From positions 8,040 through 72,039 of the forward strand of contig JARRMU010000007.1 in the NCBI GenBank assembly GCA_037385645.1: a stretch of 64,000 nucleotides of DNA, read 5' to 3'. Made by a program: the position numbers and the translations under genes. How positions within the stretch are numbered: the stretch's first letter is position 1; every line of letters begins with the position of its first letter. Below are positions 6,601 to 33,948 of this stretch, one piece after another. The notes under the pieces are model-generated. The model was not told the DNA's origin. It searched no databases and saw only the letters and a program-made list of their open reading frames with translations. Origin of the DNA: Gemmatimonadales bacterium. Its GTDB lineage: Bacteria; Gemmatimonadota; Gemmatimonadetes; Palauibacterales; Palauibacteraceae.

Positions 6601-6925
6601 CCCACACCTGCGGGAGCGCCGCGGCGTCGTACTGGTCCTTGATCGTCGCCTTGACGGACGACATCCCGCGCGTGGACGTTGACTGAACCCGTTTGAGCTG
6701 CCCCAGCTCCTGGACGGCCCGCTCGATGACGTCGGACACCTCCTCCTCGACCTCGGCGGCCGAAGCGCCAGGATAGGGCGTGTTGATGATCGCTTCCTTG
6801 ATGGTGAACTCGGGGTCCTCGAGCCTCGAGAGACTGTTGAAGGAGGTGTATCCTACGACGAGGAGCAGGATGCTAAGCGTCCACGTGATCGTGCTCTTCC
6901 GGATGGCGAGCTCGGCGATGTTCAT
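3692..6925 (-). CDS. RND family efflux transporter permease (AcrB/CzcA-like)
   Basis: 1077 aa. 12-TM architecture with two large periplasmic loops; N-terminal motif MNIAELAIRKSTITWTLSILLLVVG matches the AcrB/HAE family start. Confidence 0.9.
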   Translation of the reverse strand: MNIAELAIRKSTITWTLSILLLVVGYTSFNSLSRLEDPEFTIKEAIINTPYPGASAAEVEEEVSDVIERAVQELGQLKRVQSTSTRGMSSVKATIKDQYDAAALPQVWDELRRKVNDYQGRLPPGAGPSIVNDDFGDVYGIYAVLTGEGYTMAELYEYAKLLRRELLLVQDVKRVILWGHNPETIYVEMSRAKMAALGISQDDIFRSLQAKNLPADAGRVELGLNYIAIVPTGEFQSEKEFGELLITTRGGEGGLVYLKDVAAIRRGYRDPPTQIIRYDGKPGIAIGISTVAGGNVVTMGDALQRKLEQLQAQTPLGMEIGAVSLQSEAVTAAIGGFMVNLLEAVAIVFVVLMIFMGIRSGAIIGGILFLTIFGTFVFMQLQGVILERISLGALIIALGMLVDNAIVVVDGMQVRIEQGMDRIKAASEVVGQNMIPLLGATVIAILAFAAIGTSQDSTGEYCRSLYTVILISLMLSWVTAITTTPLVGKMFLKGKKESAGEEAKDAYGGKFYGAYKALLSGAIRRRWLTMGAIIGIFLVSLWGFGFVSNMFFPNSTRPQFFADIWLPEGTHIRDTERELAKAEEYFMGLEGVTHVSTAIGGGDLRFLLTYTPNPASSSFGAMFVDVNDWTIIDDLQARSQRELQELLPEAIVNIRKFRLGPGEGGQIQLRISGPDGTILREMAATVKDILREEGGKGVRDEWRERVKAVQPVLAEAQARQLGIERPELAKQLRVAFQGAQTGVYRERDELLPIVARAPDYERDDVDNIRDLQIWSAAAGRNIPMRQILAGFETIWEDATRFRWNRNRTIRVHADPDGELASELLDRVKPRIERALNVDLAAYTGKDFGDRDPLETLTASTIPIVEMDQIPIKGMPGYFIAWGGEAEDGSRAQAGLAASLPIFFGLMILIVILLFNSIKKTLVIWLTAPLAIIGVTAGLLLFRQPFGFMALLGFLSLIGMLIKNAIVLVEEIGRQIETGKNRFHAVVDSGVARMRPVMMAAATTILGMIPLLTDAFFISMAVTIMAGLLVATVLTLIVVPVLYTIFFRIPYGGDEAAEAARVSPQPMGPAPSEAPAGA

Positions 6926-6946
6926 CGGCAGGCGCGTCTCCCTATC

Positions 6947-8107
6947 CTAGCTGTCCATCAGGCGGACTTGCTGGCCTTCCTCGAGCTGATGTATCCCCGC
7001 CACGGCGATGGTCTCACCCGGCGCCAGGCCGTCCAGCACGACGATGCTCTCCGTCCCGGTGACGGGTCCGATGCGCACGGGACGGCTGTGCACGGTCTCG
7101 GCCTGGGTGTCGACCACCCACACCTGCGCGGCCCCGGATGGGTCCGAGAAGACGGCGTGCGCCGGGACCGTGATCGGCAGGTCTTCGTCCTCGCCTAGCC
7201 GAAGGTCCGAGACGATGACGAGCGCCGTCATCCCGGGCAGGACGTTCAAATCGGTGGGCTGGGGCATCGTGAAGGTGATCGGAAACGTCTGAGTCGCCGG
7301 ATCGGCAGCCACGGCGAACTCCTTGACCCGCATCGGATAGGAACGATTGGGCGCGGCGTCGAAGGTCGTCACGATGGTGGGACGGCTGCCCGCCCGCAGC
7401 GTGGCCATGATCGACTCGGGGACGTTGATCACGATCTCCACTTCTTCGAGGTCGTGCAGGCTGAGGATGGGCTCTTTGGCGGCCACGTCCTCGAAATTCT
7501 CCACGTACTTGAACCCGACCTGGCCGGTGAAGGGTGCGCGGAGCTCGGTGTCCCTGAGGTCGGCCTGCGCCTGCTCGAAGCGTGCCCTGGCCACATCGCG
7601 ACGGGCGGTGGCCAGCTCCAGATCCGCCAGAGGCACCGCTTCACGTTCGTACAGCCGGCGGTAGCGCTGCGCATCCGCCTCCGCCTGGTCATACGCGGCC
7701 TTGGCCTCGGCCAGCGCGATCCGGTAATCGCGAGGGTCGATGCGGGCCAGAAGCTGCCCCTGCCGGACCTGATCCCCCTCGTTGACCGGGAACTCGATCA
7801 GCGGCCCCGCTACGCGGAACGACAGCTCGGCCCGGTCCGCCGCCTGGGTCGTACCGGGGAAGGTGAGGCGGCCGCCACTCATCCCGCCGACGACCATCGT
7901 GCTGATCGGGCGCGCGACCGGGGGCGGCTCGACCTCCGCGCCTCCGCCGCATCCGGATGCGGCCAGAGCGGCGACGAGCGGCAGAAGGAGGCCTCGTTTC
8001 GCTGCCGGCGGTCTGGTCATGATTTCTTCTCTTCGGTTCGTGTCGGGTCCGGTAGTCGGCCACTCGGGCTGTCTGTTCATCACTGCCAGTTCGTCGAGTT
8101 GGGTCAC
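6947..8107 (-). CDS. RND efflux periplasmic adaptor (membrane fusion protein)
   Basis: 386 aa. Lipoprotein signal (AALAASGCGG); coiled-coil hairpin (EAKAAYDQAEADAQRYRRLYE ... ARARFEQAQADLRDTEL); beta-barrel and MP domains. Abuts the permease gene. Confidence 0.85.
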   Translation of the reverse strand: MTQLDELAVMNRQPEWPTTGPDTNRREEIMTRPPAAKRGLLLPLVAALAASGCGGGAEVEPPPVARPISTMVVGGMSGGRLTFPGTTQAADRAELSFRVAGPLIEFPVNEGDQVRQGQLLARIDPRDYRIALAEAKAAYDQAEADAQRYRRLYEREAVPLADLELATARRDVARARFEQAQADLRDTELRAPFTGQVGFKYVENFEDVAAKEPILSLHDLEEVEIVINVPESIMATLRAGSRPTIVTTFDAAPNRSYPMRVKEFAVAADPATQTFPITFTMPQPTDLNVLPGMTALVIVSDLRLGEDEDLPITVPAHAVFSDPSGAAQVWVVDTQAETVHSRPVRIGPVTGTESIVVLDGLAPGETIAVAGIHQLEEGQQVRLMDS

Positions 8108-10495
8108 CTAGTTGGTCGCCAGGGCGGCATCGATGCGCTGCCGAAACTGCTCGCGTTCCTCCGGGGTCTGGTCGTCCTCGAACCAGGCGACGGCGCGCTG
8201 GAAGTTCACGAGATCGATGAGGAACGCATACACCGCTGCCGCCGCCCCCTGCTGGGCCACGAAGCTCTCGTTCTGGGCTTCGAGCAGATCGGTCACGTTC
8301 ACGAGCCCCTGGGCGTACTTGTCCTGGACGAGCTCGAAGTTGCGGCCCGCCGCCTCGGCTTGGCGGCGGTTGAAGGTGATTGCCGGGAAGGAGCTTTCCA
8401 GCTTCCGCAGCGCCGTGCGGGTCTGGCGCTCGACGATGTCGCCCGTCAGACGCTGCTGCCGGAACAGCCTCTCGAGCTCGGAGCTGGTGCGTCCCACCTC
8501 GAAGGCGCGCGAGGCTCCCTGAAAAATCGGGTAGGTCGCCGTGAAGTTGAAGCCCCAGAGGTTCTTGTCGATGTTCTCCAGCTCCGGCCTACGCGCGATC
8601 TGATAATCCCAGAAGAAGCCGGCGGAGAGCGACGGGAGGAACCACCTCCGCTTCCGCTGACCCACCTGGATGTCCTGCGCCTCGATCTGCTTCTCGACCG
8701 CCTGCAGCTCGGGGTCGTTCTCCCGCGCCAGCTGCACGGCCAGCGCCCGGAACCGCTCCAGCTCCGCGGCGTCGGTGAAGAGAGGGGTGAAGATCCCCAC
8801 GAGGAAGGGGAATTGCTCCTCCGGCTCGCCCACCTCCTGCGGCTGCCACCTCCGGCCCTGCTGCAGGGCGAGGATCTGGTTGAGGCGGATGCGCTCCGTC
8901 TCTATCCGGGCCAGGCTCGCGAACAGCAAGCTCTGGCGCTTTGCCACCTCCGCCTCCCACCGGTAGACCTCGTCTCGCCCGGAGTAGCCGACCTCGGCCC
9001 GGAACTTGGCCAGCTCGAGATTCTCCTGCGTGACCCGCAGGTTGCTCACGTCGATCCGGTAGAGGATCAAGGAGAGGGCGTATCGAAGGTACTCCGTTCC
9101 GGCCAGATTGAAGGCCTCGAGGCGCGTCGCCTCGTAGATCTGCTTCGTGCTCTCGAGTAGACGGCCGGAGCTGCGATATTCGCTGATCCTCGCGTCGTCG
9201 TAGATCATCTGGTTGGCTCGCACCCCGGCCGAAGCGACCCGGTCAGGCACGGTTCCCTCGAGGAAGAGCTGGCTGATCCCGCTGACATCTCCGATCGCGC
9301 CGATCTGAGGCAGGATCGGGCTCAACGCGAGATCCCGCTCCTTCTCGGCCGTCACGATGTCCTGTGCCTGGATCGCCAGCCTGAGGTTGCCGCGCTCGGC
9401 GTACTGCAGCACCTGCGCGAACTCCAGCGGTTCCCCCGGCGGTGCGAGGGCCCCCTCGTTGACCCAGGTGGCCAGGGCCATGGTGGCCACGCTCGGTTGA
9501 TAGCCGATCTGGACGGCCGTTTCCGCGTTCATGAGCAAGCGAGGGTCGGCGGAGACAAGGATCGGAAGATCCTCCATCGAAGCGCCGCGCATGAGCTCGC
9601 TGATGTTCACGGCGACCCGTCGCGCTGCGACGGTCGTAAGCTCGGGCGTTCGAGCGGCCAGAGCTCCCTGGAAGACGTCGCCATGTCCCTCCACGCTGAA
9701 CGTCGGGATTCGCCGGTCGTTCAAGCCTCCGATCAACCGCAGGTGTTCGTCGATCGTCAACCGGGGCAGGCGCGTTAGGATGGCGGCCTGTGCGTCGCCG
9801 AGTGCATTCAGGACCGCGTCGACGTCGGTCCCTACCGGAACTGGGATCAGCTCGGTCTCCGTCGCGCCCTCGAGAGCTTCAATCTCTCCAACCAGCGGCG
9901 CGAGCTCATCGAGCATCCTCGCGTCGATCAGAACATGGATCTGCTCGGCCGGCACCAGATCGAGGAGCTCTCGAATGTCGCCTTCCGCTCGATTGGCGAT
10001 GAGCATGAAGTTGAGGTTGGGCTTGGTCGATCGATCGCCCCGTGCATCGGCGACGTGGAACAGGTCCAGGCGCTGCACGTAGCCGCTGATCACCGGCTTG
10101 GCGAGCTCGATCCGCGTCGCCGCCTGCGTGATCAGGAGACCGGGTGTCAGGATCACGTCCACCTCGGGATCGTCCAGTGCCGCCCTCAGAGCGGGTTCCA
10201 TCCGATCGGCGTCCCAGCCCGCGTCGAACTCGGGGGCTTTCTTGAAGACCGCCCTCTCACCTCGCGCGCCGAGGATCGCCACGACCTCTCTCTCGATGCT
10301 GGCCAGTATCGTATCGCCAGGCGAAGGGCCGTCCACCACCACGGCGATGGTGACCGGCGTGTCGCGGACCGGCTCCAACGCTCCCTCCTGAGCGGTGGCG
10401 GGGGAGGGAAGCAGGAAGATGGCCGACAGCGCCATGGCCAAAGGGACGGCGTCTCCAACGAGGCGCCGTGCGAAGAGCCTGTACATCGGAAACAT
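8108..10495 (-). CDS. TolC-family outer membrane efflux protein with ~380-aa N-terminal periplasmic extension
   Basis: 795 aa. C-terminal ~400 aa show TolC/OprM-like coiled-coil and barrel repeats (LELAKFRAEVGYSGRDEVYRWEAEVAKRQSL..., LEAQNESFVAQQGAAAAVYAF). The N-terminal ~380 aa after the signal peptide is an additional alpha/beta domain not present in canonical TolC. Stop abuts the adaptor start. Confidence 0.75.
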   Translation of the reverse strand: MFPMYRLFARRLVGDAVPLAMALSAIFLLPSPATAQEGALEPVRDTPVTIAVVVDGPSPGDTILASIEREVVAILGARGERAVFKKAPEFDAGWDADRMEPALRAALDDPEVDVILTPGLLITQAATRIELAKPVISGYVQRLDLFHVADARGDRSTKPNLNFMLIANRAEGDIRELLDLVPAEQIHVLIDARMLDELAPLVGEIEALEGATETELIPVPVGTDVDAVLNALGDAQAAILTRLPRLTIDEHLRLIGGLNDRRIPTFSVEGHGDVFQGALAARTPELTTVAARRVAVNISELMRGASMEDLPILVSADPRLLMNAETAVQIGYQPSVATMALATWVNEGALAPPGEPLEFAQVLQYAERGNLRLAIQAQDIVTAEKERDLALSPILPQIGAIGDVSGISQLFLEGTVPDRVASAGVRANQMIYDDARISEYRSSGRLLESTKQIYEATRLEAFNLAGTEYLRYALSLILYRIDVSNLRVTQENLELAKFRAEVGYSGRDEVYRWEAEVAKRQSLLFASLARIETERIRLNQILALQQGRRWQPQEVGEPEEQFPFLVGIFTPLFTDAAELERFRALAVQLARENDPELQAVEKQIEAQDIQVGQRKRRWFLPSLSAGFFWDYQIARRPELENIDKNLWGFNFTATYPIFQGASRAFEVGRTSSELERLFRQQRLTGDIVERQTRTALRKLESSFPAITFNRRQAEAAGRNFELVQDKYAQGLVNVTDLLEAQNESFVAQQGAAAAVYAFLIDLVNFQRAVAWFEDDQTPEEREQFRQRIDAALATN

Positions 10496-12509: not shown

Positions 12510-13082
12510 CTAGGGTCCTCCGGACGTCAGGATTTCGTGCCGGAGCTTCACCCACGCGAGCCGTTGCTCGAGCGATGCCCGAATCGAGAACTCGGCGTCT
12601 CCGTACTCGTAGAGCACCATCATCCGACCGCGGATCTCCGCCTGTTCGGGTGAGAAGCCCATCTCCCTGAAGACGCCGGTGGTCCACTCGAGCCTCGCCT
12701 GGTCCACGCGTCTCACGGCCTGCTTGGCCCGCTCATCGGACTTAGCCCAGGTGCGCATGGCCGCCTCGTACCGGGCACGATCCTCGCGGGCGATGTCTTC
12801 CATCACCTCCAAGAGGTTCTGCGCCGGAGAGCCGGTCAGGTTGTCGTGGTCGCGCACCGCGCCCAACATCCTCGTGGCCCAGTAGTCGATCACGCTGGAG
12901 AGCAAGTCCTGCAGGTCCTCGAAGTGCCAGTAGAAGCTCCCCTTAGTCACGCCGAGCGACGCGGCCAGCGGTTCCACATGGACTCCTTCAGGCCCTGCAC
13001 TCAGCAGCGCGGCGAGCGCCGCGGAGAGCCAATCGTTCCGCGTGAGCTTTCGCGCGCTTCGGGGTTGCTTGGGTGCCGCCAT
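12510..13082 (-). CDS. TetR/AcrR family transcriptional regulator
   Basis: 190 aa. N-terminal HTH (LTRNDWLSAALAALLSAGPEGVHVEPLAASLGVTKGSFYWHF) typical of TetR_N. Confidence 0.85.
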   Translation of the reverse strand: MAAPKQPRSARKLTRNDWLSAALAALLSAGPEGVHVEPLAASLGVTKGSFYWHFEDLQDLLSSVIDYWATRMLGAVRDHDNLTGSPAQNLLEVMEDIAREDRARYEAAMRTWAKSDERAKQAVRRVDQARLEWTTGVFREMGFSPEQAEIRGRMMVLYEYGDAEFSIRASLEQRLAWVKLRHEILTSGGP

Positions 13083-13279: not shown

Positions 13280-15628
13280 ATGATCGAGGGAGATCAAATG
13301 GGGCCGGTCGGTAGAACCGCGTCCGCTCCGTGGCGCCGGCTCGGCAGGATCTTCCCCCTCTTGGCCGCGGTCCTCGTCCTCGCCGCCGCCATCCTCGCAA
13401 CCGCGCTCGTTCCACGACGTCTTCAGCAGCGAGTCCAGGAGGACCGGAGCGAGCTCGAGGAGATCGTCCGGCCCGCTCGCTCGCTCACCTCGGATCTGCG
13501 CGCGACGCTGGACCGGGAAGCCGCTGCCGTGCGCGGATACCTCCTCGACCGGGACGTGAGAAACAAGGAGCGATACGGGCGGGCGAGGGCCCGCGAAGAC
13601 TCGCTACTGCTGCAGCTCGCACCCTTGGCCCGGCGCCTCGGCCCGCTGACCGTGTCTCAGCTGGGCGATGTGCGCACGCGCGCCGCCGCCTGGCACGTCG
13701 ACCAGGAGCGGCTCCTGCTCGAAGAGCCTGGCTTCGCACCCGAGTTTCTCCGCCGCATGCCGGCGCAGCTGGAGATGTACGACGGTGCCTCGCTCGCCGC
13801 CGAGCGCCTGGGCGCAACGCTGGCTGGAATAGAGACGGCGCGGCTGGACCGACTGGCTCGACTCCGGGCGCTGGAGGAGCCCGTCATGCGCGGAGTGGCC
13901 TGGCTGGCCGGCCTGGCCCTCCTCATCACCCTGCTGCTCGCCTGGAGGTTGGCCGCGCTCCAGAGCCGGCCTCCCAGACGCCGACTGGAGGAGGCTGAGC
14001 GCCGGTTCGGGGAGCTGGTCGACGCCATGCGCGAGGTGTTCTGGATTCGGGATGCTCGGACGGGCCGGTTCGTCTATGTGAGCCCCGCCTACGAGAGCGT
14101 CTGGGGCCGGAGCCGGGAGCCGCTGTACGCCGGCTTCGGTCCGTTTCTGGCGACCGTTCATCCCGAGGACCGCCGACGCGTGGAAGCGGCCGCTCCGCCG
14201 GGGGAGCTCGAATACCGAATCGTTCGCCCCGACGGAACGATCCGCTGGATCGCCGAGCGGTGCTTGCCGATGTCGGCTCCGGCCGATGGCTCGGCCCGGT
14301 GGCTTGGCGTCGCCGCCGACGTGACCGAGCGATTCGAAGCGCGGCAGCATCTGAAGCACCTCGCGCTTCACGATCCGGTCACCGGCCTCGGCAATCACCT
14401 GCAGCTCCTCGATCGGCTCGAGCACGCCCTCACCCGGGCGAGGCGTGCGAGGGTGGCGGTCGCCGTTCTGGTCGTGGATGTCGTGGACTTTCGCTCCGTT
14501 AACGAGGAGTTGGGGTGGGCGGCCGGAGACCGGCTTCTGGCTGCCGTCGGCAAACGCCTGCAGGGCACGCTGCGGCAGGAGGACACGCTCGTACGCCTGG
14601 GGGACGACGCGTTCATGGCCGTGCTGGAGCAAGTGGAGGAGAGAGGGGGCGTTCTGCGAGCCGCGGCGCGGATATCGGCCGCCTTCGAGGCGCCGTTCAC
14701 GGTCGATGGGAAGGAGGTGGGGCTGAGGGTTCGGGTTGCGAGCGCGATCAGCGAGGCCGGGTCCCTGAGCTCCGCCGATCTGGGCCGACTGGCCGACGAG
14801 GCGCGGCACCGATCGAGCCTGGAGCCGAGCGCCCCGTTCGAGTCGGCGCACGCGATCACCGTCGAGTCTCCCGGTACGAAGGGCAGCCGGGGTCGGCTTC
14901 GCCAGGCTCTCGAAGAGGCGGAGTTCCGGGTCCACTACCAGCCGATTTTGGATCTTCACACCGATCGAGTGGCGGGGCTGGAGGCGCTGCTCCGTTGGGA
15001 GCACCCTGAACGGGGTTTGCTCCTTCCCCACGAGTTTCTGGGGCTGGCGGAGGAGACCGGACTGATCCATCCGCTCGGATTGTGGGTCCTTCGCCAGGTA
15101 TGCACGGATCTGCACCACTGGGAGAGTGAGTCGCTGCCGCTGCGGGACGCATGGGTCGCGGTGAACCTCTCTCGGCGGCAGTTCGAACTGCCCGATTTCG
15201 TCGAGGAGGTGGCCCGTATCCTGGCCACGACCGGAGCCCTTCCGGCGCGGCTGAGGGTCGAGGTGGATGAGACGACGTGGTTCAGGGCCCGCAGCCCGCT
15301 TCGGCGGCTTCGAGACCTCGGCATCGTCGTCGCGATCGACGGCTTCGGCGAGCGGTTCGGCGCCCTGGGTGCCCTTAGGCGTCTCCCCGTGGATGCCATC
15401 AAGCTGACCACCTCCGCGGCCGTGGCGTCGTTCGTCGGACTGGCCTCCGGGCTGGGGCTCGAAGTCACCGCCGTGGGCATCGAGAACGGCGGTGAGCTGA
15501 GGGGTCTGAAGGCTCTGGGGTGCCCGACCGGCCAGGGTTTCCACCTGGCGCCGCCGCTGAGCGGCGAGGCGCTCCTGGACTGGACGGTGGCTCGTGGCCC
15601 GGTACGCGCACAGGGCTCGCTGAGCTGA
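13280..15628 (+). CDS. Sensor c-di-GMP turnover protein: periplasmic sensor, TM, PAS, degenerate GGDEF, EAL
   Basis: 782 aa. PAS region (FWIRDARTGRFVYVSPAYESVWG). GGDEF domain with the signature degenerated to LGDDAF. EAL domain with intact EALLRWEHPERG and downstream conserved blocks. Likely a phosphodiesterase. Confidence 0.85.
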   Translation: MIEGDQMGPVGRTASAPWRRLGRIFPLLAAVLVLAAAILATALVPRRLQQRVQEDRSELEEIVRPARSLTSDLRATLDREAAAVRGYLLDRDVRNKERYGRARAREDSLLLQLAPLARRLGPLTVSQLGDVRTRAAAWHVDQERLLLEEPGFAPEFLRRMPAQLEMYDGASLAAERLGATLAGIETARLDRLARLRALEEPVMRGVAWLAGLALLITLLLAWRLAALQSRPPRRRLEEAERRFGELVDAMREVFWIRDARTGRFVYVSPAYESVWGRSREPLYAGFGPFLATVHPEDRRRVEAAAPPGELEYRIVRPDGTIRWIAERCLPMSAPADGSARWLGVAADVTERFEARQHLKHLALHDPVTGLGNHLQLLDRLEHALTRARRARVAVAVLVVDVVDFRSVNEELGWAAGDRLLAAVGKRLQGTLRQEDTLVRLGDDAFMAVLEQVEERGGVLRAAARISAAFEAPFTVDGKEVGLRVRVASAISEAGSLSSADLGRLADEARHRSSLEPSAPFESAHAITVESPGTKGSRGRLRQALEEAEFRVHYQPILDLHTDRVAGLEALLRWEHPERGLLLPHEFLGLAEETGLIHPLGLWVLRQVCTDLHHWESESLPLRDAWVAVNLSRRQFELPDFVEEVARILATTGALPARLRVEVDETTWFRARSPLRRLRDLGIVVAIDGFGERFGALGALRRLPVDAIKLTTSAAVASFVGLASGLGLEVTAVGIENGGELRGLKALGCPTGQGFHLAPPLSGEALLDWTVARGPVRAQGSLS

Positions 15629-15652
15629 GCTTTCGGGTTCGGCCGTCTCGAG

Positions 15653-17383
15653 CTAAACGGCCGTCGGCTCTCTGCCGAGATCGGAAGCGGGACCGGCGCC
15701 CTGCGGCGCTTCCGCCTCCGCCGCCTCGGTTGCCTGGTGCACTTCGAAGAAGAAGTGATCGGCGCCCACGAGATCCACGATGCCCGCTCGGTCGAGGACG
15801 TCTCGAACGGGGCCCTTCACCCCGACGAAGAAGAACCGGATCCCGGCGGCGTTGAATTCCTCGACGATCTCCTTGAGCGCATGGGCGGCCGTCGAGTCGA
15901 TCTGATTCACCGGGTAGGCGTCGAGCACGAGCGTGTCGAGCGCCGGGTCTCGATCCGCTATCTCCCGCAGCTTGTCCTTCAGGAAGGTGGCGTTCCCGAA
16001 GAAGAGGGGCGCGTCGACCCGGAAGACCACGACGCCGCTCCGCACGAGTGCCTCAGGGTGTCGACGCACGTTGCGGAAGGTAGCCGTGCCCGGCAGCCGG
16101 CCCATGACGGCCGTGTGCGGCCTGTAGCTCTCGTGCACGAGGACGATGAGGGACGCGATCACGCCCAGCAGAATGCCCTGCTCGATTCCCAGGGCTAGGG
16201 TCGCCACGAAGGTCATCGCCATCAGGAAGAAATCCCTGCGCTTTACGTGCCACAGGAAGCGCGCCTCCCGCCAGTCGATGAGTCCCGACACGGCCACGAT
16301 GACGATCGCCGCGAGAACGGCGTTGGGCAGGTAGTAGAAGAGCGGGGTCAGGAACAGCAATGTCAGGGCGATGACTCCGGCGGCGAACAGCGAGGAGAGC
16401 GGCGTACGGGCGCCCGCCCGATCGTTCACCGCCGTGCGGGAGAAGCCGCCCGTCGTCGGGTAGGCCCGGAAGATGGAGCCGACCACGTTCGCCAGGCCCA
16501 GGGCGACCAGCTCCTGGCTCGCCTCCACCTCGTAGCGGTCGCGACTCGCGTAGACCTTCGCGACGGCGATCGATTCCATGAAGCCTACCATCGAGATGAT
16601 CAACGCCGTGGGCAGCAGCGCCCGCAGATCGCCGGCGGCGATGGTGGCCATGCGGGGCGACGGGAGGCCTCGTGGCACGTCTGTCACGATCTGAACGCCG
16701 GCCGCATCGAGTGAGAGCGCGCCGACCGCGACGGTTCCGAGGACGACGACGGCCAGCGGAGCCGGGAGGCTCGGCCTCCATCGCCTCAGCGCCACGAGGA
16801 TCACGATGGCGGCGACGCCGATCGCCAGGGTGATCAGGTGGGTGGAGCCCGCCCGCTGAACGGCGCTCGCGATGATGATGTGGATCTGGGTGGACCGGGG
16901 CAGCGCGATCCCCAACAGGTGCTTGAGCTGGCTGAACCCGATGATGAGCGCCGCCGCTGCCGTGAAGCCCGTGAGCACCGGGTGCGAGAGGAAGTTCACC
17001 AGGAAGCCGAAGCGGGCGAGCCCGAGGGCGAGCTGGATCGCGCCCACCATGCCGGCCAGGAGGATGGCGAGGGCTACGTAGCGCGCCGGATCGGCTCCCG
17101 CGAGCGGACCGACCCCCGCCGCGACCAGCAGGGAAACCATCGCCACCGGGCCGACGGAGAGTGGGCGCGACGTGCCGAACGCCGCGTAAACCGCGAGAGG
17201 CGTGAGCGCCGCGTAGAGCCCGTAGATCGGCTCCAAGCCGGCGATGAGGGCGTACGCCATCCCCTGCGGGATGAGCATGACTCCCACCGTCAGGCCCGCG
17301 GAAAGATCACCTCTCAGCTTGCCGCGATCGTACGCCGTCAGCTCGCTCACGATCGGGACGAGCCGCCTCAGGAGCGCTGCCAT
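15653..17383 (-). CDS. SulP family anion (sulfate) permease with C-terminal STAS domain
   Basis: 576 aa. SulP N-terminal block (RGDLSAGLTVGVMLIPQGMAYALIAGLEP), multiple TM segments, C-terminal STAS (AVMGRLPGTATFRNV... VLDAYPVNQIDSTAAHALKEIVEEF). Confidence 0.9.
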   Translation of the reverse strand: MAALLRRLVPIVSELTAYDRGKLRGDLSAGLTVGVMLIPQGMAYALIAGLEPIYGLYAALTPLAVYAAFGTSRPLSVGPVAMVSLLVAAGVGPLAGADPARYVALAILLAGMVGAIQLALGLARFGFLVNFLSHPVLTGFTAAAALIIGFSQLKHLLGIALPRSTQIHIIIASAVQRAGSTHLITLAIGVAAIVILVALRRWRPSLPAPLAVVVLGTVAVGALSLDAAGVQIVTDVPRGLPSPRMATIAAGDLRALLPTALIISMVGFMESIAVAKVYASRDRYEVEASQELVALGLANVVGSIFRAYPTTGGFSRTAVNDRAGARTPLSSLFAAGVIALTLLFLTPLFYYLPNAVLAAIVIVAVSGLIDWREARFLWHVKRRDFFLMAMTFVATLALGIEQGILLGVIASLIVLVHESYRPHTAVMGRLPGTATFRNVRRHPEALVRSGVVVFRVDAPLFFGNATFLKDKLREIADRDPALDTLVLDAYPVNQIDSTAAHALKEIVEEFNAAGIRFFFVGVKGPVRDVLDRAGIVDLVGADHFFFEVHQATEAAEAEAPQGAGPASDLGREPTAV

Positions 17384-17405
17384 GGGCCGAACCCCCTGCC
17401 GGGGG

Positions 17406-18866
17406 TCAGACTGCTGCGGGCTCCGCCGCCTCGGTCGTCTCCAGCGGGCCGATGGCCGGATAGTCGGCGATCAGGTCGTCGACGTAACGCACGTCGAATC
17501 CCTGCCGTTTCAGGTACGAGGCGGCCGCGGCCGCACGGGATCCGGTCCGGCAGTAGACGAGCAGCGTTCCGTTCTCGGGGATACGGGGCTCGTACTCGGG
17601 GAGCCTCGTGTAAGAGGTGTTGAGGGCCCCCGGGACCCGACCCTCCTCGAACTCGGAGGAGAACCTGACGTCCAGTGGCAGCGCCCCGTCCTCCTTTCGG
17701 GCCGACTCGAGGTCCGCGAAGTCGATCACGTCGATCGAATCGTAGGCTCCGCCGTCGATGAAGTAGGCTTCCAGCGCTTCCGGCTCGACGAAGCCGGCCA
17801 CGTTGTCGTACCCGATCCGGACCAGGCTCCGGACCGCCTCGTCCAGATCCTCCTCGCGAACCACCAAGAAGAGCGGCGTCGTCTCATCTTCGACCAGCGA
17901 GCCGACCACTTGGCTGAACGCCCGGTCCAGCGGCGCGTAGAGGGAGCCCTCGAGGTGGCGGGCCATGTACGCGTCCCTGTCCAGCCGGGTGTCGACCACG
18001 AGCAGGTCCTCTCGTCCCGAGAGCTTCTCGAGCTCCGAGCGGGCGAGCTTGCGCGGCGAGGGCAGGTTGCCGAGGACGGGCGCGCCGAGCTTGTTGTCCC
18101 GCTTCATGCGTGCGAAATAGGTCGGCGGCTCGGGCTGGCCGGTGAGGATGAAGTCCACGAAGGCGTCCTCGCCGCGCATCGCGGCCTCGATCGCCGGGCT
18201 GAAGCGCCGCTCGTAGCCTACGGTCGTCTCCGGAACCGCCCCCAGGGCCTTCCCGCAGGCCGAGCCGGCGCCATGGGCAGGCCAGACCTGGAGGTAGTCG
18301 GGCAGCTTCAGAAAATCCTGAACGGAGGAGTAGAGACGCCGGGCCGATGGCTCCATCATGCCCTCGACTTTGGCGGCCGTCTCCAGCAGATCCGGTCGAC
18401 CCAAGTCTCCCACGAAGACGAAATCGCCGCTGGCCAGCCCGATCGGCTCGTCAGCACCCCCTCCCTCGTCGGTGATCAGGAAGACCATGTGCTCGGGCGT
18501 GTGACCGGGCGTGTGAACCGCCTGCACGCTGATGTTGCCGACGCGAAAGGTGTCTCCGTCCTTCAGGAGCTCGTAGTCGTAGTCACCGTCCTTGACCCAC
18601 TCGTACTTCCAGTTCGCGTCGCCCTCATCGGAGAGGTAGAGCTTCGTGCCGAAGCGCTCGGCGAACTCTCGCGCACCCGAGAGGAAGTCGGCGTGAATAT
18701 GTGTCTCGGTGACCGTGGTGATCGTGAGCCCTTCGGACTCGGCCAGCTCGACATACCGGTCGATGTCGCGCTCGGGGTCGATGACCAGAGCCTCGCCCGT
18801 GGCTTGGCAGCCGACCAGGTACGCGTACTGGGCGAGCTTGTCGTCGAAGATCTGTCGCAAGAGCAT
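17406..18866 (-). CDS. Persulfide dioxygenase (MBL-fold, ETHE1/CstB/Blh-like) fused to two rhodanese domains
   Basis: 486 aa. MBL metal-binding motifs (THIHADFLSG, HTPGHTPEHMVFL). C-terminal rhodanese domains with catalytic CRTGSRA (Cys-Arg-x-Gly-x-Arg). Confidence 0.85.
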   Translation of the reverse strand: MLLRQIFDDKLAQYAYLVGCQATGEALVIDPERDIDRYVELAESEGLTITTVTETHIHADFLSGAREFAERFGTKLYLSDEGDANWKYEWVKDGDYDYELLKDGDTFRVGNISVQAVHTPGHTPEHMVFLITDEGGGADEPIGLASGDFVFVGDLGRPDLLETAAKVEGMMEPSARRLYSSVQDFLKLPDYLQVWPAHGAGSACGKALGAVPETTVGYERRFSPAIEAAMRGEDAFVDFILTGQPEPPTYFARMKRDNKLGAPVLGNLPSPRKLARSELEKLSGREDLLVVDTRLDRDAYMARHLEGSLYAPLDRAFSQVVGSLVEDETTPLFLVVREEDLDEAVRSLVRIGYDNVAGFVEPEALEAYFIDGGAYDSIDVIDFADLESARKEDGALPLDVRFSSEFEEGRVPGALNTSYTRLPEYEPRIPENGTLLVYCRTGSRAAAAASYLKRQGFDVRYVDDLIADYPAIGPLETTEAAEPAAV

Positions 18867-18890
18867 CGTGCCTTCTCCTCCGAATCGTGC

Positions 18891-19325
18891 CTAGTGGTGT
18901 GGCAGCCGGGGCGCCAAGTAGCCGTAGGCCCAGGCGCCGGCCAGGGCAGTGAACAGCGCGACGAACATCACTGAGATGCCGTTCCCGATCAGCGCGTATA
19001 TCGGTCCCGGGCAGGCGCCCAGAAGGCCCCAGCCGAGCCCGAACAGCGATCCGCCGACCCAGTAGCGGTAGTTGAGGCCGGCCGAGGGTTTGACTTTGGT
19101 CACGATCTCCGAGCCGCCCAAGCTCCGCATCCCAAGGCGCTTGATCAGCCCTGTCGCCACGGCCGCCACCGCGACCGCGGAGCCGATGATCCCGAACATG
19201 TGGAAGCTCTGAAACCGGAACATCTCCTGGATGCGGAACCAGGAGATCACCTCTCCTTTTGTAAACGCGATTCCCAGGAAAACTCCGAGGAAGACGTAGC
19301 GCAGGAGGCCTCTTCGCTCGTCCAT
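18891..19325 (-). CDS. YeeE/YedE family (DUF395) sulfur-compound transporter half-protein
   Basis: 144 aa, 4 TM. GSLFGLGWGLLGACPGPIY matches the YeeE/YedE conserved Gly/Cys motif. Confidence 0.75.
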   Translation of the reverse strand: MDERRGLLRYVFLGVFLGIAFTKGEVISWFRIQEMFRFQSFHMFGIIGSAVAVAAVATGLIKRLGMRSLGGSEIVTKVKPSAGLNYRYWVGGSLFGLGWGLLGACPGPIYALIGNGISVMFVALFTALAGAWAYGYLAPRLPHH

Positions 19326-19329
19326 CGGG

Positions 19330-19867
19330 TTACCAGGCGCCGAAAATGAGCGGGAGCAGGAGATGGGTCGCCACGAGCCCGCCGGCGAAGAAGCCCAGCA
19401 CGGCGATCAGCGACGAGATCTGGAATGTCGAGAGGCCGCTGATCGCGTGACCGGAGGTGCATCCGTCCGCGTTACGAGCGCCGAAACCCACGATGAAGCC
19501 GCCGATCACGACCATCGCTGAAGAACTCGCTGGGCACCATGCCGTTGAAGTCGCGGATGCCGAGTGCCTCGAGGTCCGCGCGGGTGGACTCGGAGATGGC
19601 GATGACCGGATCGGGGCTGGCCAGCGTCGTGGCCGCGATCGCCGCTCCGCCGATGATCCCGAGGATGAGCATCAGCCGCCACATCCCCCGCTTCCAGTCG
19701 TAGCGGAAGTACTCGATCCGGCCGGGGGCGGTCGCGGCGCATATCTGGCGGAAGCTCGTCGAGAGCCCGAACTGCTTGCCCCCGGCCAGGAGAAGAAGTG
19801 GCACGATGAGGCCGATCAGCGGTCCGGCCACCCACCAGGGCCACGGCTGCGACAGCGTTTCAACCAT
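19330..19867 (-). CDS. YeeE/YedE family transporter half-protein, apparent frameshift near 19516
   Basis: ORF 19472..19867 reads plausibly up to ...NGMVPSEFFS. ORF 19330..19515 (MVVIGGFIVGFGARNADGCTSGHAISG, the canonical YeeE motif) continues in another frame. Joined, the two give a ~178-aa protein. Confidence 0.55.
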
Positions 19868-20009
19868 GTGCTAGGCCCTCCTTGCGGCTATCGCCCCGCG
19901 CTTCGGGCGCTCGTCGAGGAGCCTCTACGATGCTTGGGAGACGCGCCAAACACCGGAGGTTTCCGAGTCATCCGACCGTCGCCAGCCAGGCTGCCATTAT
20001 CCCCGGGCG

Positions 20010-20819
20010 TCACATCCCGGCGAATCTCTCCTTGAGCACGCGACGGACGGCATCCGGAAGGTCTCCGTCCGAGATACGTTGGCACGCCTCGTGGGCCATG
20101 TCCAGTGACAGGAAGAGGGAACGGCAGCGCTCGCACACGGACTCGCGGGGGACGGGGAAGGGCACGCCCTTGTCGAGCGCGTCCTGCTTGGCCTTGAGGA
20201 GATCGAGGCACTCCCGGCGCGCATGGTCGGGCGGTGCGCCCGCCCGGGTCGGCAGCTCGGCGCTCAAGGCCCGCCTGAGCTTCATGCGCGCCCGGTATAG
20301 GCGCGTCTTGATCGTTCCCTCCGTCAGGCCCATGATCTCCGCGATCTCCGCCACGGAGAGATCGGCCATCTCTTTGAGAACCAGCGGGATGCGGAAGGCA
20401 TGCGGAAGCTCGCCGATCGCCCGCTGGACACTCTCCCGTACCCGCTGCCGGTCGAGCGCCTCCACCGGGTGCTCGTCATCGACCGCGGTCAGGACCCCGT
20501 CCTCCCGGGTGGGAAGAAGCTCGGAGAGCGATTCCAGCTGCCGGGGCTCGCCGGCCCGCTTCCGCTTCATCCGCTGACAGGTGCGCGCCGCGATCGTGTA
20601 CAGCCAGGTGGAAGGCTTGGACCGGCCTTCGAAGTTCTCCCAGCCTTTGTAGGCCCGAATGAACGTCTCCTGCACCAGGTCCTCGGCGCCCTGCGGGTCC
20701 CCGCATATCTGCAAGCCCAGCCGGTAGATCTGGTCGCCGTGCTCGTCCAACAGGCGGGGGACTGCCACCTCCGCCGTCTCGGTCGTCATCGGGTCCGTTC
20801 CCGCTCCAGCGGTCCTCAT
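20010..20819 (-). CDS. ECF-type RNA polymerase sigma factor with Cys-rich C-terminal extension
   Basis: 269 aa. Sigma-70 region 2 (DLVQETFIRAYKGWENF) and region 4 (LSVAEIAEIMGLTEGTIKTRLYRARMKL). An extra ~80-aa tail holds 4 Cys and 2 His (HARRECLDL...SVCERCRSL...MAHEAC), suggestive of a fused redox or metal-sensing (ZAS/CRD-like) module. Confidence 0.8.
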   Translation of the reverse strand: MRTAGAGTDPMTTETAEVAVPRLLDEHGDQIYRLGLQICGDPQGAEDLVQETFIRAYKGWENFEGRSKPSTWLYTIAARTCQRMKRKRAGEPRQLESLSELLPTREDGVLTAVDDEHPVEALDRQRVRESVQRAIGELPHAFRIPLVLKEMADLSVAEIAEIMGLTEGTIKTRLYRARMKLRRALSAELPTRAGAPPDHARRECLDLLKAKQDALDKGVPFPVPRESVCERCRSLFLSLDMAHEACQRISDGDLPDAVRRVLKERFAGM

Positions 20820-20881
20820 CTCATCTGCACTCCAGCGGTCCTCATGGCATCTGCACTCCAGCGGTCTTCATGGCATCTGCA
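20804..20881. repeat. Three tandem copies of a 26-bp unit (ctccagcggtcctcatggcatctgca, 1-3 mismatches) spanning the sigma-factor start codon
   Basis: Direct inspection: copies at 20804-20829, 20830-20855 and 20856-20881. On the mRNA strand each copy reads GGAG-UGCAG-AUG... Confidence 0.85.
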
Positions 20882-20970
20882 TTCCGCCCGCCTGCCGGCA
20901 AAACCAGACTGGCGCCGCTCGCGGAATCGTGTTAAGAGAATAGGCGACTTCGGCTTCCGGAGGCTCCGAG

Positions 20971-21609
20971 ATCGACAAGAACCTGCGCTATCGTCTGCCG
21001 TTAATCTGCGTTGCCCTGGGCCTGGCGATCAACGCCGGCGACCTTCTCGGTCAGCAGGAGAATCGGAAGGGCTTCGGGTTCAGCGGATCACTCGGCTGGT
21101 CGACGATCGGCGGCGACTACGGCGAGTTGATGAGCAGCGGCATACCGGCCGAGGGTGCCATCTGGTACCAGCCGAGCTGGTGGCGCATCGGCGTATCCAT
21201 CCACGCGGCCTCCTACGATGTCATCGAGCCCTACACCGACCAAAGCATCAGCCAGGTCGTGTTCCAGCTGCTCGGTACGTTCCTCTTCCTCCGCGGCGAC
21301 CTCGTCCAGCCGTACGCGCAGGTGAGAGTCGGGACCACGCGTTGGCGGCCGGAGGGTCCGCTGTTCGATCCCAACCCGCCGCCCCCCGACGTGCCTCCGG
21401 GAGAAAACCCCGCACCGGGCCGGAACGGCTTCCAGGGAGGGCTCGGCGTCGGCGCGGAGTTCTGGGTCACGAAGAACTTCGGCATCGACGTGGGCGGCCT
21501 GTTCTCGGCGTTCTCCACCCAGGAGCTGGATGTGCCGATCCTCGGAATCACGGGCCTCGAGTCAGGCAGGGAAATCGGCTTTCACGCCGGCGTGGTGTGG
21601 TTCCCGTGA
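20971..21609 (+). CDS. Outer membrane beta-barrel protein (OmpA-like/porin-family barrel); start codon uncertain
   Basis: Frame is open from 20944. A signal-like segment (LRYRLPLICVALGLAINAGDLLGQQ) precedes the first ATG at 21127, so a non-ATG start is likely. Alternating hydrophobic beta-strand pattern, and a C-terminal aromatic residue (VVWFP) typical of OM barrels. Confidence 0.5.
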   Translation: MDKNLRYRLPLICVALGLAINAGDLLGQQENRKGFGFSGSLGWSTIGGDYGELMSSGIPAEGAIWYQPSWWRIGVSIHAASYDVIEPYTDQSISQVVFQLLGTFLFLRGDLVQPYAQVRVGTTRWRPEGPLFDPNPPPPDVPPGENPAPGRNGFQGGLGVGAEFWVTKNFGIDVGGLFSAFSTQELDVPILGITGLESGREIGFHAGVVWFP

Positions 21610-28800: not shown

Positions 28801-28888
28801 CGCCGGCGTCGGGATCGCCGGAGACCTGCGCGGCCAGACCCGCCGGCGAAGCGAGAACGATCGCGAGAGTCAGAAGCGACACCCGCAT
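25832..28888 (-). CDS. Large exported protein of unknown function (1018 aa), translationally coupled to the upstream YbdK-like ligase
   Basis: Signal peptide [22 protein letters not shown]-terminal ~150 aa with beta-strand amphipathic pattern; the remainder is a mixed alpha/beta domain with no motif I can assign confidently. Start ATG overlaps the ligase stop (ATGA at 28886-28889). Confidence 0.7.
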   Translation of the reverse strand: MRVSLLTLAIVLASPAGLAAQVSGDPDAGGLTKSMGLPLIWKPYLGWEAGAYRPSDDAQFGVLMDVGVFKDLFNPTIGAPGLQGEGYVGARESGPDGGLRALVAIPIVRLGFGADYNFRDTSLDFLVRFSAPLRRSGIIGNGSRFRLNWLPWRGQTVSFGLTVPLGQGALGDTRARKAHASLPDDRLEHMPSPSDEPALEDALDNVAETAGWVNRLTTPFIDQGGGDPEEALASFETWLGELEAHFASRTALFPTGLTAQAEVRAYHAELERAFSVAASGLALPIGSSTAEGRRVAAQAKEMLLDYVIFPYNRLLGLRKKNDSALGLAREADAAFRSWVGTSGLVAPERLDVVSYVFRRLAEIVEENRKLSRERWGSPRLVWIPLQYALLPEQHDTQSELNAIVERAVGKPFVDGNRVWYVDNREFHQEIGAIIRRAEDYSVLWIHDIQGRNENGDPDAVTFHTVVQGYLRALIEGVRRYDRTMKMPVHLVFFDQHRFEDNKARPWMKLLEDPMNYRLSLPDDFAYMADSIEVAQANLREAVARSRLLQERALRYGEKWLENRVKVHVSITNPADPTYWSNQVLPAVRWPDNVMRDHRKLAFYDITEEDPYRGMVVYGGMGIGEHYSGPGWEDRGILLQGPAALSIKDAARELLRQQGFSEEEIPFPLRPRPKPANYDEIVRAEVESGRAISHALELHNDTGYGPKLINVLKATLYTLMPPGSVLIIPDSLWNAPILAAWLVGNCLRGGRVMIVAPALDNAPSNRFAQMSRAQELFARLILIQRALEPQIRTAGGMLKTGLYALDVNAADIPARMRVIEKGFSTEPFLRDVVGLQSTVAWSARSERMIGAPAGGSDADGNAKGTPKLHAKTHFLASAEAWRAITERPELGLLVDSFIRQMMRRIEPPQQNGDDPSLSDGVPIQLMVQQAVMEETPPETLEKFVAYLMVGSYNQNYRSMLMDGEVMLTVEGGAVIYGLIDYLSLLGTATWVDSLEELEEYLPAYGGLKYMLARSFKEML

Positions 28889-30000
28889 CAGTCGACGATC
28901 CCTTCAGCCGTCTCCGCGATCAGGCTGTCCACGACGGCCTTGAGGTCGCCGGTCTGCTCGAACACACGCAGCTGACGCTCGGCGCTCGATCCCTCCTCCA
29001 GGATCTGGAAGGCGTACTCGACCTCGTTGCGGCTGCCCAACTCGTCGAGCACATCGTCCAGAAACCACTCGATCATCTCGCGGATGAGATCACGGGCCGG
29101 AAGCTCCGCCTGCTTTCCGAAGTCGATCAGCTCGCCCTCTACGCCATAGCGGGCGGCGCGCCACTTGTTCTCGGCGATGAGCTCGGCGGGATAGAGACGG
29201 AACGTCATGTTGTCGCGACGCAGCTTCCAGAGCTTGGCCACGATCGCCTGGAAGATCGCGGCGATGCAGATGACTTCGTCGACGCGGGTGCAGATGTCGG
29301 TAATGCGGAACTCGAGTGTCGGGTAGACCCAATGCGGCCGGACGTCCCACCAGATCTTCGTTCCATCGGGGATCGAGCCCGCACGCACCAACGTCTCGAC
29401 CATGTACTCGAATTCACCCCAGCTCGAGAACTCGCGCGGGATCCCCGTTCGCGGAAAGGCGCGCCAGGTGACGGTTCGGTAGGACCTGAGCCCGGTGTTC
29501 CGGCCCATCCAGAACGGCGAGCTGGTGGAGAGCGCCAGAACGTGCGGGAGGAAGTAACGGGCGACGTTCATGGCGTCGATCAGGAACTCGCGGTCCTCTA
29601 TCCCGACATGGACGTGCATACCGAAGATGAGGTTCTTCTTGGCGATGTCACGGAGGTCCTCGTAGATCCCCAGGTAACGCTCCAGCGGCGTGATCTCCTG
29701 TTCCAGCCAGGAGGAGAAGGGATGGGTGCCGGCGGCCGCGATCCTCAGTCCGCTCTCCGCCACCTTCTCCGAGACGAGGCGTCGCAAACGCACCACCTCT
29801 TCCCTGGCCTCGGCCACGCTCTGGCAGACCTTGCTACCGACCTCGACGACGGACTGGTGCAGCTCCGGCTTCATCTGCTCTCGAAGGACGACCTGGTCCG
29901 AATCGAGGATCTCGGTGATGTAGGAGGCGAGCTCCCGGGTCTCCGGGTCGATGACCTGGTACTCCTCCTCGATCCCGATCGTGAGTGACGGTTTCTTCAT
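28888..30000 (-). CDS. Carboxylate-amine ligase, YbdK / glutamate-cysteine ligase family 2 (GCS2)
   Basis: 370 aa. N-terminal [19 protein letters not shown] and conserved blocks ([24 protein letters not shown]) match the YbdK/GCS2 family. Confidence 0.85.
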
Positions 30001-33508: not shown

Positions 33509-33948
33509 GTGACGAGCATCTCCTCGATCGCAGGACGGGGAAGGGCGCCGGTCCGGCGTTCCACCGGCTCACCGGCTCGGTAGAGAATGAGGGTGGGAAT
33601 CCCCTGGATTCCGAACCGACGCGCGATGTCGGGGTTGCGGTCCGTGTCCAGCTTTGCCACGAGCAGCTCGCCGGTGCGCTCCCTGGCGATGTCATCCAGG
33701 ATCGGCGCCATCATCTTGCAGGGGCCGCACCAGTCCGCGTAGAAATCGACCAGCACGGGGATCTCCGCGTCGGAGATCAGCTTGTCGAAGTCTTCGCCAT
33801 TCACCCGCACAGGCCGGTCGACGAGGATCGGCTTTCGGCACTTCCCGCAGATCGGGCGTCCCTCGGCTCCGAGGTCCAGGCGGTTCAGTGTGAGACAGAA
33901 AGGGCAGCGGAGGGTGACGTTGCCGGAGGCGGTCGTACTCTTGGACAT
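33505..33948 (-). CDS. trxC: Thioredoxin with N-terminal zinc-finger (Trx2/TrxC-type)
   Basis: 147 aa. N-terminal CPFC...CGKC zinc ribbon and WCGPC active site (FYADWCGPCKMMAPIL). Confidence 0.9.
   Translation of the reverse strand: MSKSTTASGNVTLRCPFCLTLNRLDLGAEGRPICGKCRKPILVDRPVRVNGEDFDKLISDAEIPVLVDFYADWCGPCKMMAPILDDIARERTGELLVAKLDTDRNPDIARRFGIQGIPTLILYRAGEPVERRTGALPRPAIEEMLVT

Follow-up and report, generated by a model that had tools for sequence, protein, structure and literature searches.

Could a sigma factor that carries its own cysteine module control the detoxification of sulfide and persulfides? This question is raised by a five-gene cluster in a 64,000-nt stretch of contig JARRMU010000007.1 (assembly GCA_037385645.1) from a Gemmatimonadales bacterium, referred to here as the window. 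The five genes encode an extracytoplasmic function (ECF) sigma factor with a cysteine-containing C-terminal tail, two halves of a YeeE/YedE transporter, a persulfide dioxygenase (PDO) fused to rhodanese domains, and a SulP-STAS anion transporter. In agreement with a preliminary description of this DNA, the open reading frame (ORF) list of the window places all five genes co-directionally on the minus strand with intergenic gaps of 142, 4, 24, and 22 nt. On balance, we consider it probable that the locus comprises a regulator gene and its target operon, in which the sigma factor drives the detoxification genes from a promoter in the 142-nt gap and its cysteine module is switched by thiol-reactive sulfur species or related oxidants. 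The earlier statement that the regulator is not of the CstR, SqrR, or BigR kind stands, as no CsoR-, ArsR-, or Fis/enhancer-binding-type regulator is found among the scanned ORFs of the window, nor in the homologous loci L081, L084, and L148–L150. The nearest regulators in the window are a TetR protein (12510–13082) and a PAS-GGDEF-EAL protein.

Linkage to sulfur genes and a promoter motif

Homologous loci, given L numbers here, were collected with two alignments. A scan of genome contigs with the full-length alignment was swamped by generic ECF sigma factors, the tail being present in 10 of 80 loci, and the tail-only alignment was then searched on metagenomes; the by-catch of the sigma locus searches provided 70 tail-less ECF loci for comparison. 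The same five genes as in the window are found in L084, L085, and L151. In L081, a complete Gemmatimonadota genome, just the sigma and PDO-rhodanese genes are retained, separated by 33 nt, which indicates that these two genes are the conserved core. Sigma factors that are 42–53% identical to that of the window (~50% in L148–L150) adjoin similar sulfur genes. A PDO-rhodanese gene and/or a YeeE gene lies beside the sigma gene in L010 (Thermoanaerobaculia; order sigma, PDO, YeeE), L109, L116, L122, L126, L129, L134, L138, and L139. The sigma gene stands beside TauE-PDO-YeeE-YeeE in L148, beside YeeE-YeeE in L149 (with rhodanese, TauE, and DUF302 genes nearby), and by PDO-glutaredoxin-YgaP and rhodanese-YgaP-TauE in L150. 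Overall, PDO or YeeE is near 13 of 71 tail-bearing loci, many of which are short, compared with none of the 70 tail-less loci (Fisher 1.3e-4). The neighborhood of cysteine-tailed sigma factor, YeeE, and PDO-rhodanese is thus conserved, a point that the preliminary description had put forward for checking, and the linkage of the tailed sigma factor to PDO, YeeE, TauE, or rhodanese genes spans Gemmatimonadota, Acidobacteriota, and unassigned metagenomic contigs. Across the loci, the sigma gene is not joined by any conserved regulator gene.

The enzymes and transporters of the cluster are ordinary, and together they form a detoxification module of a known kind. Domains were assigned with Pfam and NCBIfam. 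The PDO-rhodanese contains a Lactamase_B domain (residues 11–169) and a C-terminal Rhodanese domain (residues 385–463) with the catalytic CRTGSR motif. The second rhodanese domain of the preliminary description is present (residues ~270–375), but this copy is degenerate and lacks the catalytic Cys, as in CstB, and its score of 20.5 bits is just below the cut-off. The protein aligns over its full length to two solved metallo-β-lactamase (MBL)-rhodanese proteins, 3TP9 (E 7e-117) and 3R2U (E 5e-96), the latter of which we take to be S. aureus CstB. These alignments uphold the proposed likeness to cst-type sulfide detoxification, and the product of the gene is, judged from its sequence, a CstB-type persulfide dioxygenase-rhodanese. 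The assignment of the last gene as a SulP permease with a STAS domain is also sound (PF00916, E 1.5e-116; C-terminal STAS PF01740, E 1.6e-21; TIGR00815, 519 bits against a cut-off of 380). Pairs of small Sulf_transp/DUF6691 proteins and SulP-STAS transporters are standard companions of PDO-rhodanese enzymes.

Examination of the DNA 3′ of the sigma stop codons across the loci reveals a shared motif, GGGAACC-N12/13-CGTGTCTC(T), that is, GGAAC-N16-GTCTC, which has the typical shape of an ECF promoter: an AAC-containing −35 element and a short, GC-rich −10 element (CGT/GTC) spaced by about 16–17 nt. The strict form, GGAAC-N15-17-GTCTC, occurs 12 times in the 280-nt zones that follow the sigma stop codons and add up to 17.9 kb, compared with 0.22 occurrences expected from the rest of the same loci (P~2e-17). 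A weighted form of the motif gives 30 matches in 1.15 Mb of tail-bearing loci and 7 in 1.90 Mb of tail-less loci. Matches are also located directly upstream of PDO in L109, L126, and L134 and of thioredoxin in L104. The later-fetched loci L148–L150 provide an independent check, and in all three the motif lies between the sigma stop codon and the first sulfur gene; L150 has a second copy before a divergent PDO operon. L147 has neither sulfur genes nor the motif. In the window, the sole weighted-motif match in 64 kb falls within the 142-nt gap, with the yeeE-1 ATG following ~70 nt downstream, and the same motif is found in the same place in L084, L085, and L151, as well as in at least 12 distant loci. 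The motif is conserved in three bacterial phyla. The link between the sigma factor and a sulfur regulon with its own promoter is thus well supported by sequence comparison, and we infer that the window sigma factor recognizes the promoter at 19937–19964.

This promoter has consequences for the organization of the locus. The sigma gene is linked to the sulfur genes as previously described, but a single sigma-led operon is improbable because the sulfur genes have a sigma-type promoter of their own in the 142-nt gap. Read-through from the sigma gene is also possible, as no terminator was found in this gap; generic sigma-70 promoter and terminator scans were uninformative. The motif is not found upstream of the sigma gene in the window, in its close relatives, or in most loci, and there is consequently no obvious autoregulation in the window. 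In L104, L109, and L126 the motif precedes a target operon that includes the sigma gene itself, suggesting that some members of the family are autoregulated and that the sigma factor of the window is not.

Taken together, the genes that follow the motif make up a coherent set for sulfur and thiol stress. Those that handle sulfur encode PDO-rhodanese, YeeE halves, SulP, TauE, rhodanese-YgaP_TM, a small membrane protein like DUF2892/YgaP-TM, and DUF302, while those of thiol redox chemistry encode CMD/AhpD-like proteins, 1-Cys peroxiredoxin, thioredoxin, and glutaredoxin. Operons for outer-membrane efflux protein/resistance-nodulation-division (OEP/RND) efflux may belong to the regulon as well. 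With thioredoxin, glutaredoxin, peroxiredoxin, AhpD-like, and RND efflux genes in the regulon, general thiol stress could be what is sensed, and not reactive sulfur species (RSS) specifically. According to this explanation, disulfide, electrophile, or peroxide stress would be sensed as in sigmaR-RsrA and SigH-RshA, the tail would be a fused, zinc-holding anti-sigma domain, and the persulfide genes would form one part of a broad thiol regulon. The thioredoxin, glutaredoxin, 1-Cys peroxiredoxin, and AhpD-like genes behind the same motif favor general thiol stress, as does a GCS2 glutamate-cysteine ligase gene that recurs nearby. The commonest and most tightly linked targets, however, are sulfur-specific (PDO-rhodanese, YeeE, TauE, and rhodanese-YgaP). 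The tail, described below, provides further evidence on both sides, and in light of all of it we regard a general thiol signal as rather unlikely.

Several observations weigh against control of sulfur genes by a sulfur-switched sigma factor. About half of the tail-bearing loci have neither the motif nor sulfur genes within the DNA fetched. The motif is not significant within the window alone, where 4 one-mismatch matches are found compared with 7.6 expected, so that its weight rests solely on conservation across loci, and the −35 element of the window is GAAAC and not GGAAC. General redox genes and, in L102, L111, and L130, OEP/RND efflux operons stand behind the motif. In addition, the YeeE-1 gene is broken in this assembly, and no known sensor or anti-sigma domain is detectably similar to the tail.

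The cysteine module

The core of the sigma factor (residues 23–181) is that of a normal ECF sigma factor (Sigma70_r2, 73 bits; Sigma70_r4_2, 54 bits; TIGR02937, 94.2 against a cut-off of 42.9). Its AlphaFold2 (AF2) model matches SigH, SigW, AlgU, and RpoE, and the core is ~30% identical to SigH. The domain searches agree with the preliminary description that this core is followed by a C-terminal extension of ~80 aa (residues ~190–269) with four Cys (204, 229, 232, and 246) and two His (199 and 243). The AF2 model of the tail is helical and confident (pLDDT 89). Searched alone, the tail has no Pfam match even at E≤10, and a sequence profile search of the PDB returned chance matches only. No fold match was found either.

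When 1.84 billion cluster representatives were scanned exhaustively with HMMER, the tail profile matched 142 proteins; in these, the tail forms the C-terminal end of a sigma-sized protein or is found in a fragment. A stand-alone tail protein would have indicated a split sigma/anti-sigma ancestor; the searches, including that of the 1.84 billion representatives, found none, only fragments. One 745-aa representative (P0175) carries the tail at residues 194–267, which points to a longer fusion or to a gene call that ran on. The spacing C-x24-C-x2-C-x13-C is fixed in 129–134 of 139 full-length members, and a His is located five residues ahead of the first tail Cys in 98 of the 139. Two additional cysteines, C39 and C81 of sigma-2, are invariant in the homologue alignment. 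Of 64 tail-bearing loci, 59 have both residues, and the pair occurs in none of the 70 truly tail-less ECF loci. The sensor was originally thought to consist of the four tail cysteines; since C39 and C81 co-occur only with the tail, the sensor probably comprises six. In the AF2 model of the tail, C232 and C246 are 14 residues (~21 Å) apart on one continuous helix, and the four tail cysteines therefore cannot make one compact site. The helix-hairpin geometry of the model would instead place C204 near C246, with C229-xx-C232 at the opposite end.

The general thiol-stress explanation invites a comparison of the tail with the zinc-binding anti-sigma (ZAS) proteins. The closest solved sigma factors include SigH and SigW, both of which are under the control of ZAS anti-sigmas, and the C...CxxC spacing of the first three tail cysteines resembles that of C11...C41xxC44 in RsrA, with which an hhalign alignment pairs them. 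However, the hhalign probability against RsrA is 0.55%, and homology between the tail and ZAS proteins is rejected as unsupported for this reason. The zf-HC2 profile misses the tail at E≤10 and yet detects a genuine anti-sigma of the window (58285–58857), and the histidine of the H-x3-C-x2-C motif is absent, the residue four before C229 being Arg or variable. The genuine anti-sigma follows a second, canonical ECF sigma factor of the window (57349–58104, plus strand) and is itself encoded on the plus strand.

Cysteine-rich C-terminal extensions are the hallmark of metal-dependent ECF44/ECF238 sigma factors, which raises the question of whether the cysteine module binds Cu, Cd, or Zn to promote DNA binding, as in CorE and CorE2, with the sulfur genes serving in metal-sulfide handling. 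The OEP/RND efflux operons with the motif in L102, L111, and L130 and an RND system located 5 kb away in the window would fit such a role. CorE-like proteins are defined by a C-terminal cysteine-rich domain (CRD) of 28–38 residues that holds six Cys, together with an essential CxC in the linker that joins sigma2 to sigma4 (PMC4937300). In contrast, the tail is 80 aa long and helical with four widely spaced Cys where the CorE CRD has six clustered Cys, and the linker CxC (residues 86–135) is present in none of the 139 full-length members. Furthermore, among the genes found behind the motif, none encodes a P-type ATPase, cation diffusion facilitator, or multicopper oxidase. The tail is consequently not CorE-like, in answer to a possibility raised in the preliminary description, and metal sensing is the least probable of the explanations considered here.

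Six invariant cysteines could also hold an Fe-S cluster that, by WhiB-like logic, reports O2, NO, iron, or sulfur supply and not persulfides. The C-x24-C-x2-C spacing recalls the first three ligands of the Wbl proteins, and OrbS is an earlier example of an ECF sigma factor that carries its own iron sensor. There is, however, no Pfam Whib match and no WhiB fold match, and the distance between C232 and C246 is too great for a single cluster, making this explanation very unlikely.

Finally, the tail may be a constitutive element of structure or promoter recognition, with regulation exerted elsewhere, by control of sigma gene transcription or by a partner that is unlinked, such that the sigma factor merely relays the signal. 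The extensions of ECF42 and CorE are required for activity and are not inhibitory. In L081, the 33 nt that separate the sigma gene from PDO lack the motif, and control at this locus must act on the promoter of the sigma gene itself; in the window, the sigma leader contains a 26-nt triple repeat. Against a constitutive tail, a structural role would hardly account for six invariant cysteines unless metal or redox chemistry is involved; a motif of its own is usually missing from the sigma gene, and no conserved regulator gene is found alongside it across loci. We therefore view a constitutive tail of this kind as improbable.

Proposed switch and known sulfur sensors

It is proposed that the tailed sigma factor is a one-component regulator, which would be made constitutively and would act without autoregulation and without a partner anti-sigma; no anti-sigma gene adjoins the tailed sigma gene. 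In its reduced form, the cysteine module, which may be metal-bound, would keep the sigma factor inactive or at least switchable, such that the tail would function as a built-in anti-sigma domain. Next, persulfides, polysulfides, or related thiol oxidants would form di- or polysulfide links between cysteine pairs, the likely pairs from the helix geometry being C204/C246 and C229-xx-C232, possibly with C39 and C81. The resulting conformational change would permit transcription of the sulfur and thiol regulon, with the sulfur genes transcribed from GAAAC-N16-GTCTC in the 142-nt gap, read by the adjacent ECF sigma factor. The CstB-type enzyme would then oxidize persulfide sulfur to sulfite or thiosulfate, while the two-piece YeeE/PmpAB-type transporter would move sulfur compounds and SulP-STAS would move anions. 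It is plausible that the cysteines sense persulfides. The identity of the signal and the role of the tail as inhibitor or activator are speculative.

The known dedicated RSS sensors use cysteine pairs that form di- or polysulfide bridges (2026 review, PMC13467558), and bridging of this type is the simplest proposal here. A more ambitious form of the proposal, which we advance only tentatively, is that the family is a fourth class of dedicated RSS sensor and the first in which a sigma subunit is the sensor, with persulfide or polysulfide bridging the tail to sigma-2 and freeing an intramolecular lock, so that genes for persulfide dioxygenase, sulfurtransferase, and sulfur-anion transporters would be turned on in Gemmatimonadota, Acidobacteriota, and Planctomycetota.

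To our knowledge, CstR (CsoR-type), SqrR/BigR (ArsR-type), and FisR (Fis-type) have all been characterized in Proteobacteria and Firmicutes. The review of RSS sensors names the CsoR, ArsR, and Fis classes only (2026; PMC13467558), and full-text literature searches returned no report in which an ECF or other sigma factor is tied to persulfide dioxygenase, RSS, polysulfide, YeeE, or rhodanese. Within the literature searched, then, the regulatory solution is unreported, as had been surmised. Reviews on ECF sigma factors outside the canonical type list cysteine-rich extensions only for ECF238, ECF287, and ECF288 and ZAS-type fusions for ECF48, ECF52, ECF53, and some ECF270 members, none of which is tied to sulfur metabolism.

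Comparison with these systems clarifies what is shared and what differs. The detoxification logic and the architecture of the key enzyme are those of the S. aureus cst operon (CstR; cstA-cstB-sqr, tauE), and TauE-type and other sulfur-anion transporters occur in related loci. In contrast to cst, the regulator here is a sigma factor and not a CsoR-family repressor, a split YeeE and SulP are present, and neither sulfide:quinone oxidoreductase (SQR), which was looked for among the ORFs of the 64-kb window, nor CstA is found in the window. The blh-YeeE/PmpAB operons under ArsR-type control by BigR, SqrR, or PigS (Xylella, Agrobacterium, Rhodobacter, Serratia) likewise have a PDO-rhodanese fusion beside two small YeeE/YedE-type membrane proteins. 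The BigR/SqrR systems sense by cysteine pairs that form polysulfide bridges (PMC13467558). Those operons are controlled by derepression, whereas the tailed sigma factor would exert positive control through a dedicated sigma factor with its own promoter class. FisR (Cupriavidus, sqr-pdo) also exerts positive control of sulfide-oxidizing genes through an alternative sigma pathway; it is, however, an enhancer-binding protein that works with sigma-54, while here the ECF sigma-70-family protein itself bears the putative sensor.

Among sigma factors, the extended ECFs (ECF41 SigJ, ECF42, ECF44/238 CorE/CorE2, and ECF287/288) resemble the present family in having no anti-sigma gene, a fused C-terminal domain, conserved Cys also outside the extension, and mostly no autoregulation. 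The fold, length, and Cys pattern of the tail differ from theirs, and the targets are sulfur and thiol genes and not metal efflux genes. SigR-RsrA and SigH-RshA share a thiol-based switch on an ECF sigma factor (proposed here) and a thioredoxin in the regulon, but they rely on a separate zf-HC2 anti-sigma, whereas the tail is fused and fails the sequence-based ZAS tests applied.

The tailed sigma factor would be a previously undescribed type of sulfur-stress regulator. Gemmatimonadota, Acidobacteriota, and Planctomycetota are plentiful in soils and sediments, settings in which sulfide fluxes are important, and their regulators have hardly been described; with a defined promoter and a predictable regulon, the tailed family is a candidate for sulfur-stress sensing in these phyla. 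The tail would also add a new type of sensory extension to the ECF 'one-component' concept, and synthetic biology could potentially gain from it an orthogonal switch that responds to sulfide or thiols. Should general thiol stress prove to be the signal, no fused, non-ZAS counterpart of SigR-RsrA would have been described before this family.

Features of the cluster and its surroundings

The features of the cluster are listed in Table 1, along with the three loci in which the sigma gene lies downstream of the motif.

Table 1. Coordinates of the sulfur cluster, its sigma factor domains and predicted promoter, and of motif-led operons that contain the sigma gene
Feature	Sequence	Position	Strand	Details
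SulP-STAS anion transporter	window	15653..17383	(-)	576 aa; Pfam and TIGR00815
MBL/PDO-rhodanese	window	17406..18866	(-)	486 aa
YeeE/YedE half 2	window	18891..19325	(-)	144 aa; Sulf_transp/DUF6691 (Pfam)
YeeE/YedE half 1, whole	window	19330-19867	(-)	538 nt, two ORFs in different frames
YeeE half 1, C-terminal part	window	19330..19515	(-)	61 aa, other frame; GCTSGH cysteine motif; weak match to TsuA C-terminus
YeeE half 1, N-terminal part	window	19472..19867	(-)	131-aa ORF; frame lost after residue ~117
Predicted ECF-type promoter of sulfur genes	window	19937..19964	(-)	GGAAAC-CTCCGGTGTTTGGCGC-GTCTCC; −35 GAAAC, 16-nt spacer, −10 GTCTC
ECF sigma factor gene	window	20010..20819	(-)	longest ORF 269 aa
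Three-helix Cys4 tail	window	20013..20252	(-)	residues 190-269; C204-x24-C229-x2-C232-x13-C246
Sigma-4.2 domain	window	20277..20435	(-)	residues 129-181; Pfam
Sigma-2 domain	window	20553..20753	(-)	residues 23-89; carries family-specific Cys39 and Cys81
Motif, then thioredoxin-sigma	L104	1384-2656		
Motif, then PDO-rhodanese-SulP-sigma	L109	2540-7309		
Motif, then TauE-sigma	L126	5391-7261		

Both YeeE/YedE halves recognized in the preliminary description pass the Pfam cut-off for Sulf_transp of 27 bits (half 1 N-terminal part, 29; half 1 C-terminal part, 42; half 2, 34.5), but the reading frame of half 1 is interrupted. In L084, L085, and L151 the gene is intact and encodes 189 aa; compared with these loci, the window has a 32-nt deletion between 19517 and 19516, which shifts the frame. 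L151 is 99.6% identical to the window over 1.43 kb and contains the 32 missing nucleotides, TGGGACGGGCTCCTGACATTGCCGGGATTCGT. Because this near-identical locus is intact, the defect in the window is either a strain variant or pseudogene or an assembly error.

The annotated ATG of the sigma gene (20819) lies inside a 26-nt tandem repeat (3.2 copies, 20804–20885; unit CTCCAGCGGTCCTCATGGCATCTGCA on the plus strand) that has an ATG in every copy. The true start is likely ATG 20789 (Met11), which would give a protein of 259 aa, as the N-termini of homologues begin MTETAE at the equivalent of Met11. L151 has the repeat and L084 and L085 lack it; it may be a leader element, an operator, or neutral. 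Full-length relatives of the sigma factor with 50–57% identity are numerous in metagenome-assembled genomes of Gemmatimonadota, Acidobacteriota, and Planctomycetota, and the family may already be numbered in the ECF classification. ECF270, which has some fused members, is only a lead; ECF270 and ECF01-Gob are mentioned only in passing in the literature.

On one side, the cluster is flanked by the PAS-GGDEF-EAL gene (13280–15628, plus strand), which is convergent to SulP. This gene is syntenic in L081–L084 and is a conserved neighbor in Gemmatimonadota. The other flank consists of a divergent gene for an outer-membrane-protein-like product (21127–21609) followed by a DUF3943 gene. There is no Rfam match in 15000–21500. 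The RND efflux system of the window (OEP-membrane fusion protein-AcrB, 3692–10495, minus strand) is ~5 kb from the cluster and is arranged alike in L081; the promoter motif is not found before the window copy.

GCS2-type glutamate-cysteine ligase genes recur near members of the tailed sigma family, at 28888–30000 (minus strand) in the window, at 785–1894 in L082, and at 3789–4866 in L148, where the gene is divergent from and adjoins the sigma gene and is split into three fragments. This recurrence hints at a link to the synthesis of low-molecular-weight thiols. The window also encodes MsrA (404–955), an NDH-2-like pyridine-nucleotide-disulfide oxidoreductase (967–2367), and an N-terminally extended thioredoxin (33505–33948), none of which has the motif upstream. 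Unrelated to the sulfur cluster are two further minus-strand genes, which encode a 276-aa HEPN_Swt1-like protein (37669–38499) and a 400-aa Fer4/dehalogenase-like protein (36112–37314) that is probably of the epoxyqueuosine-reductase type.

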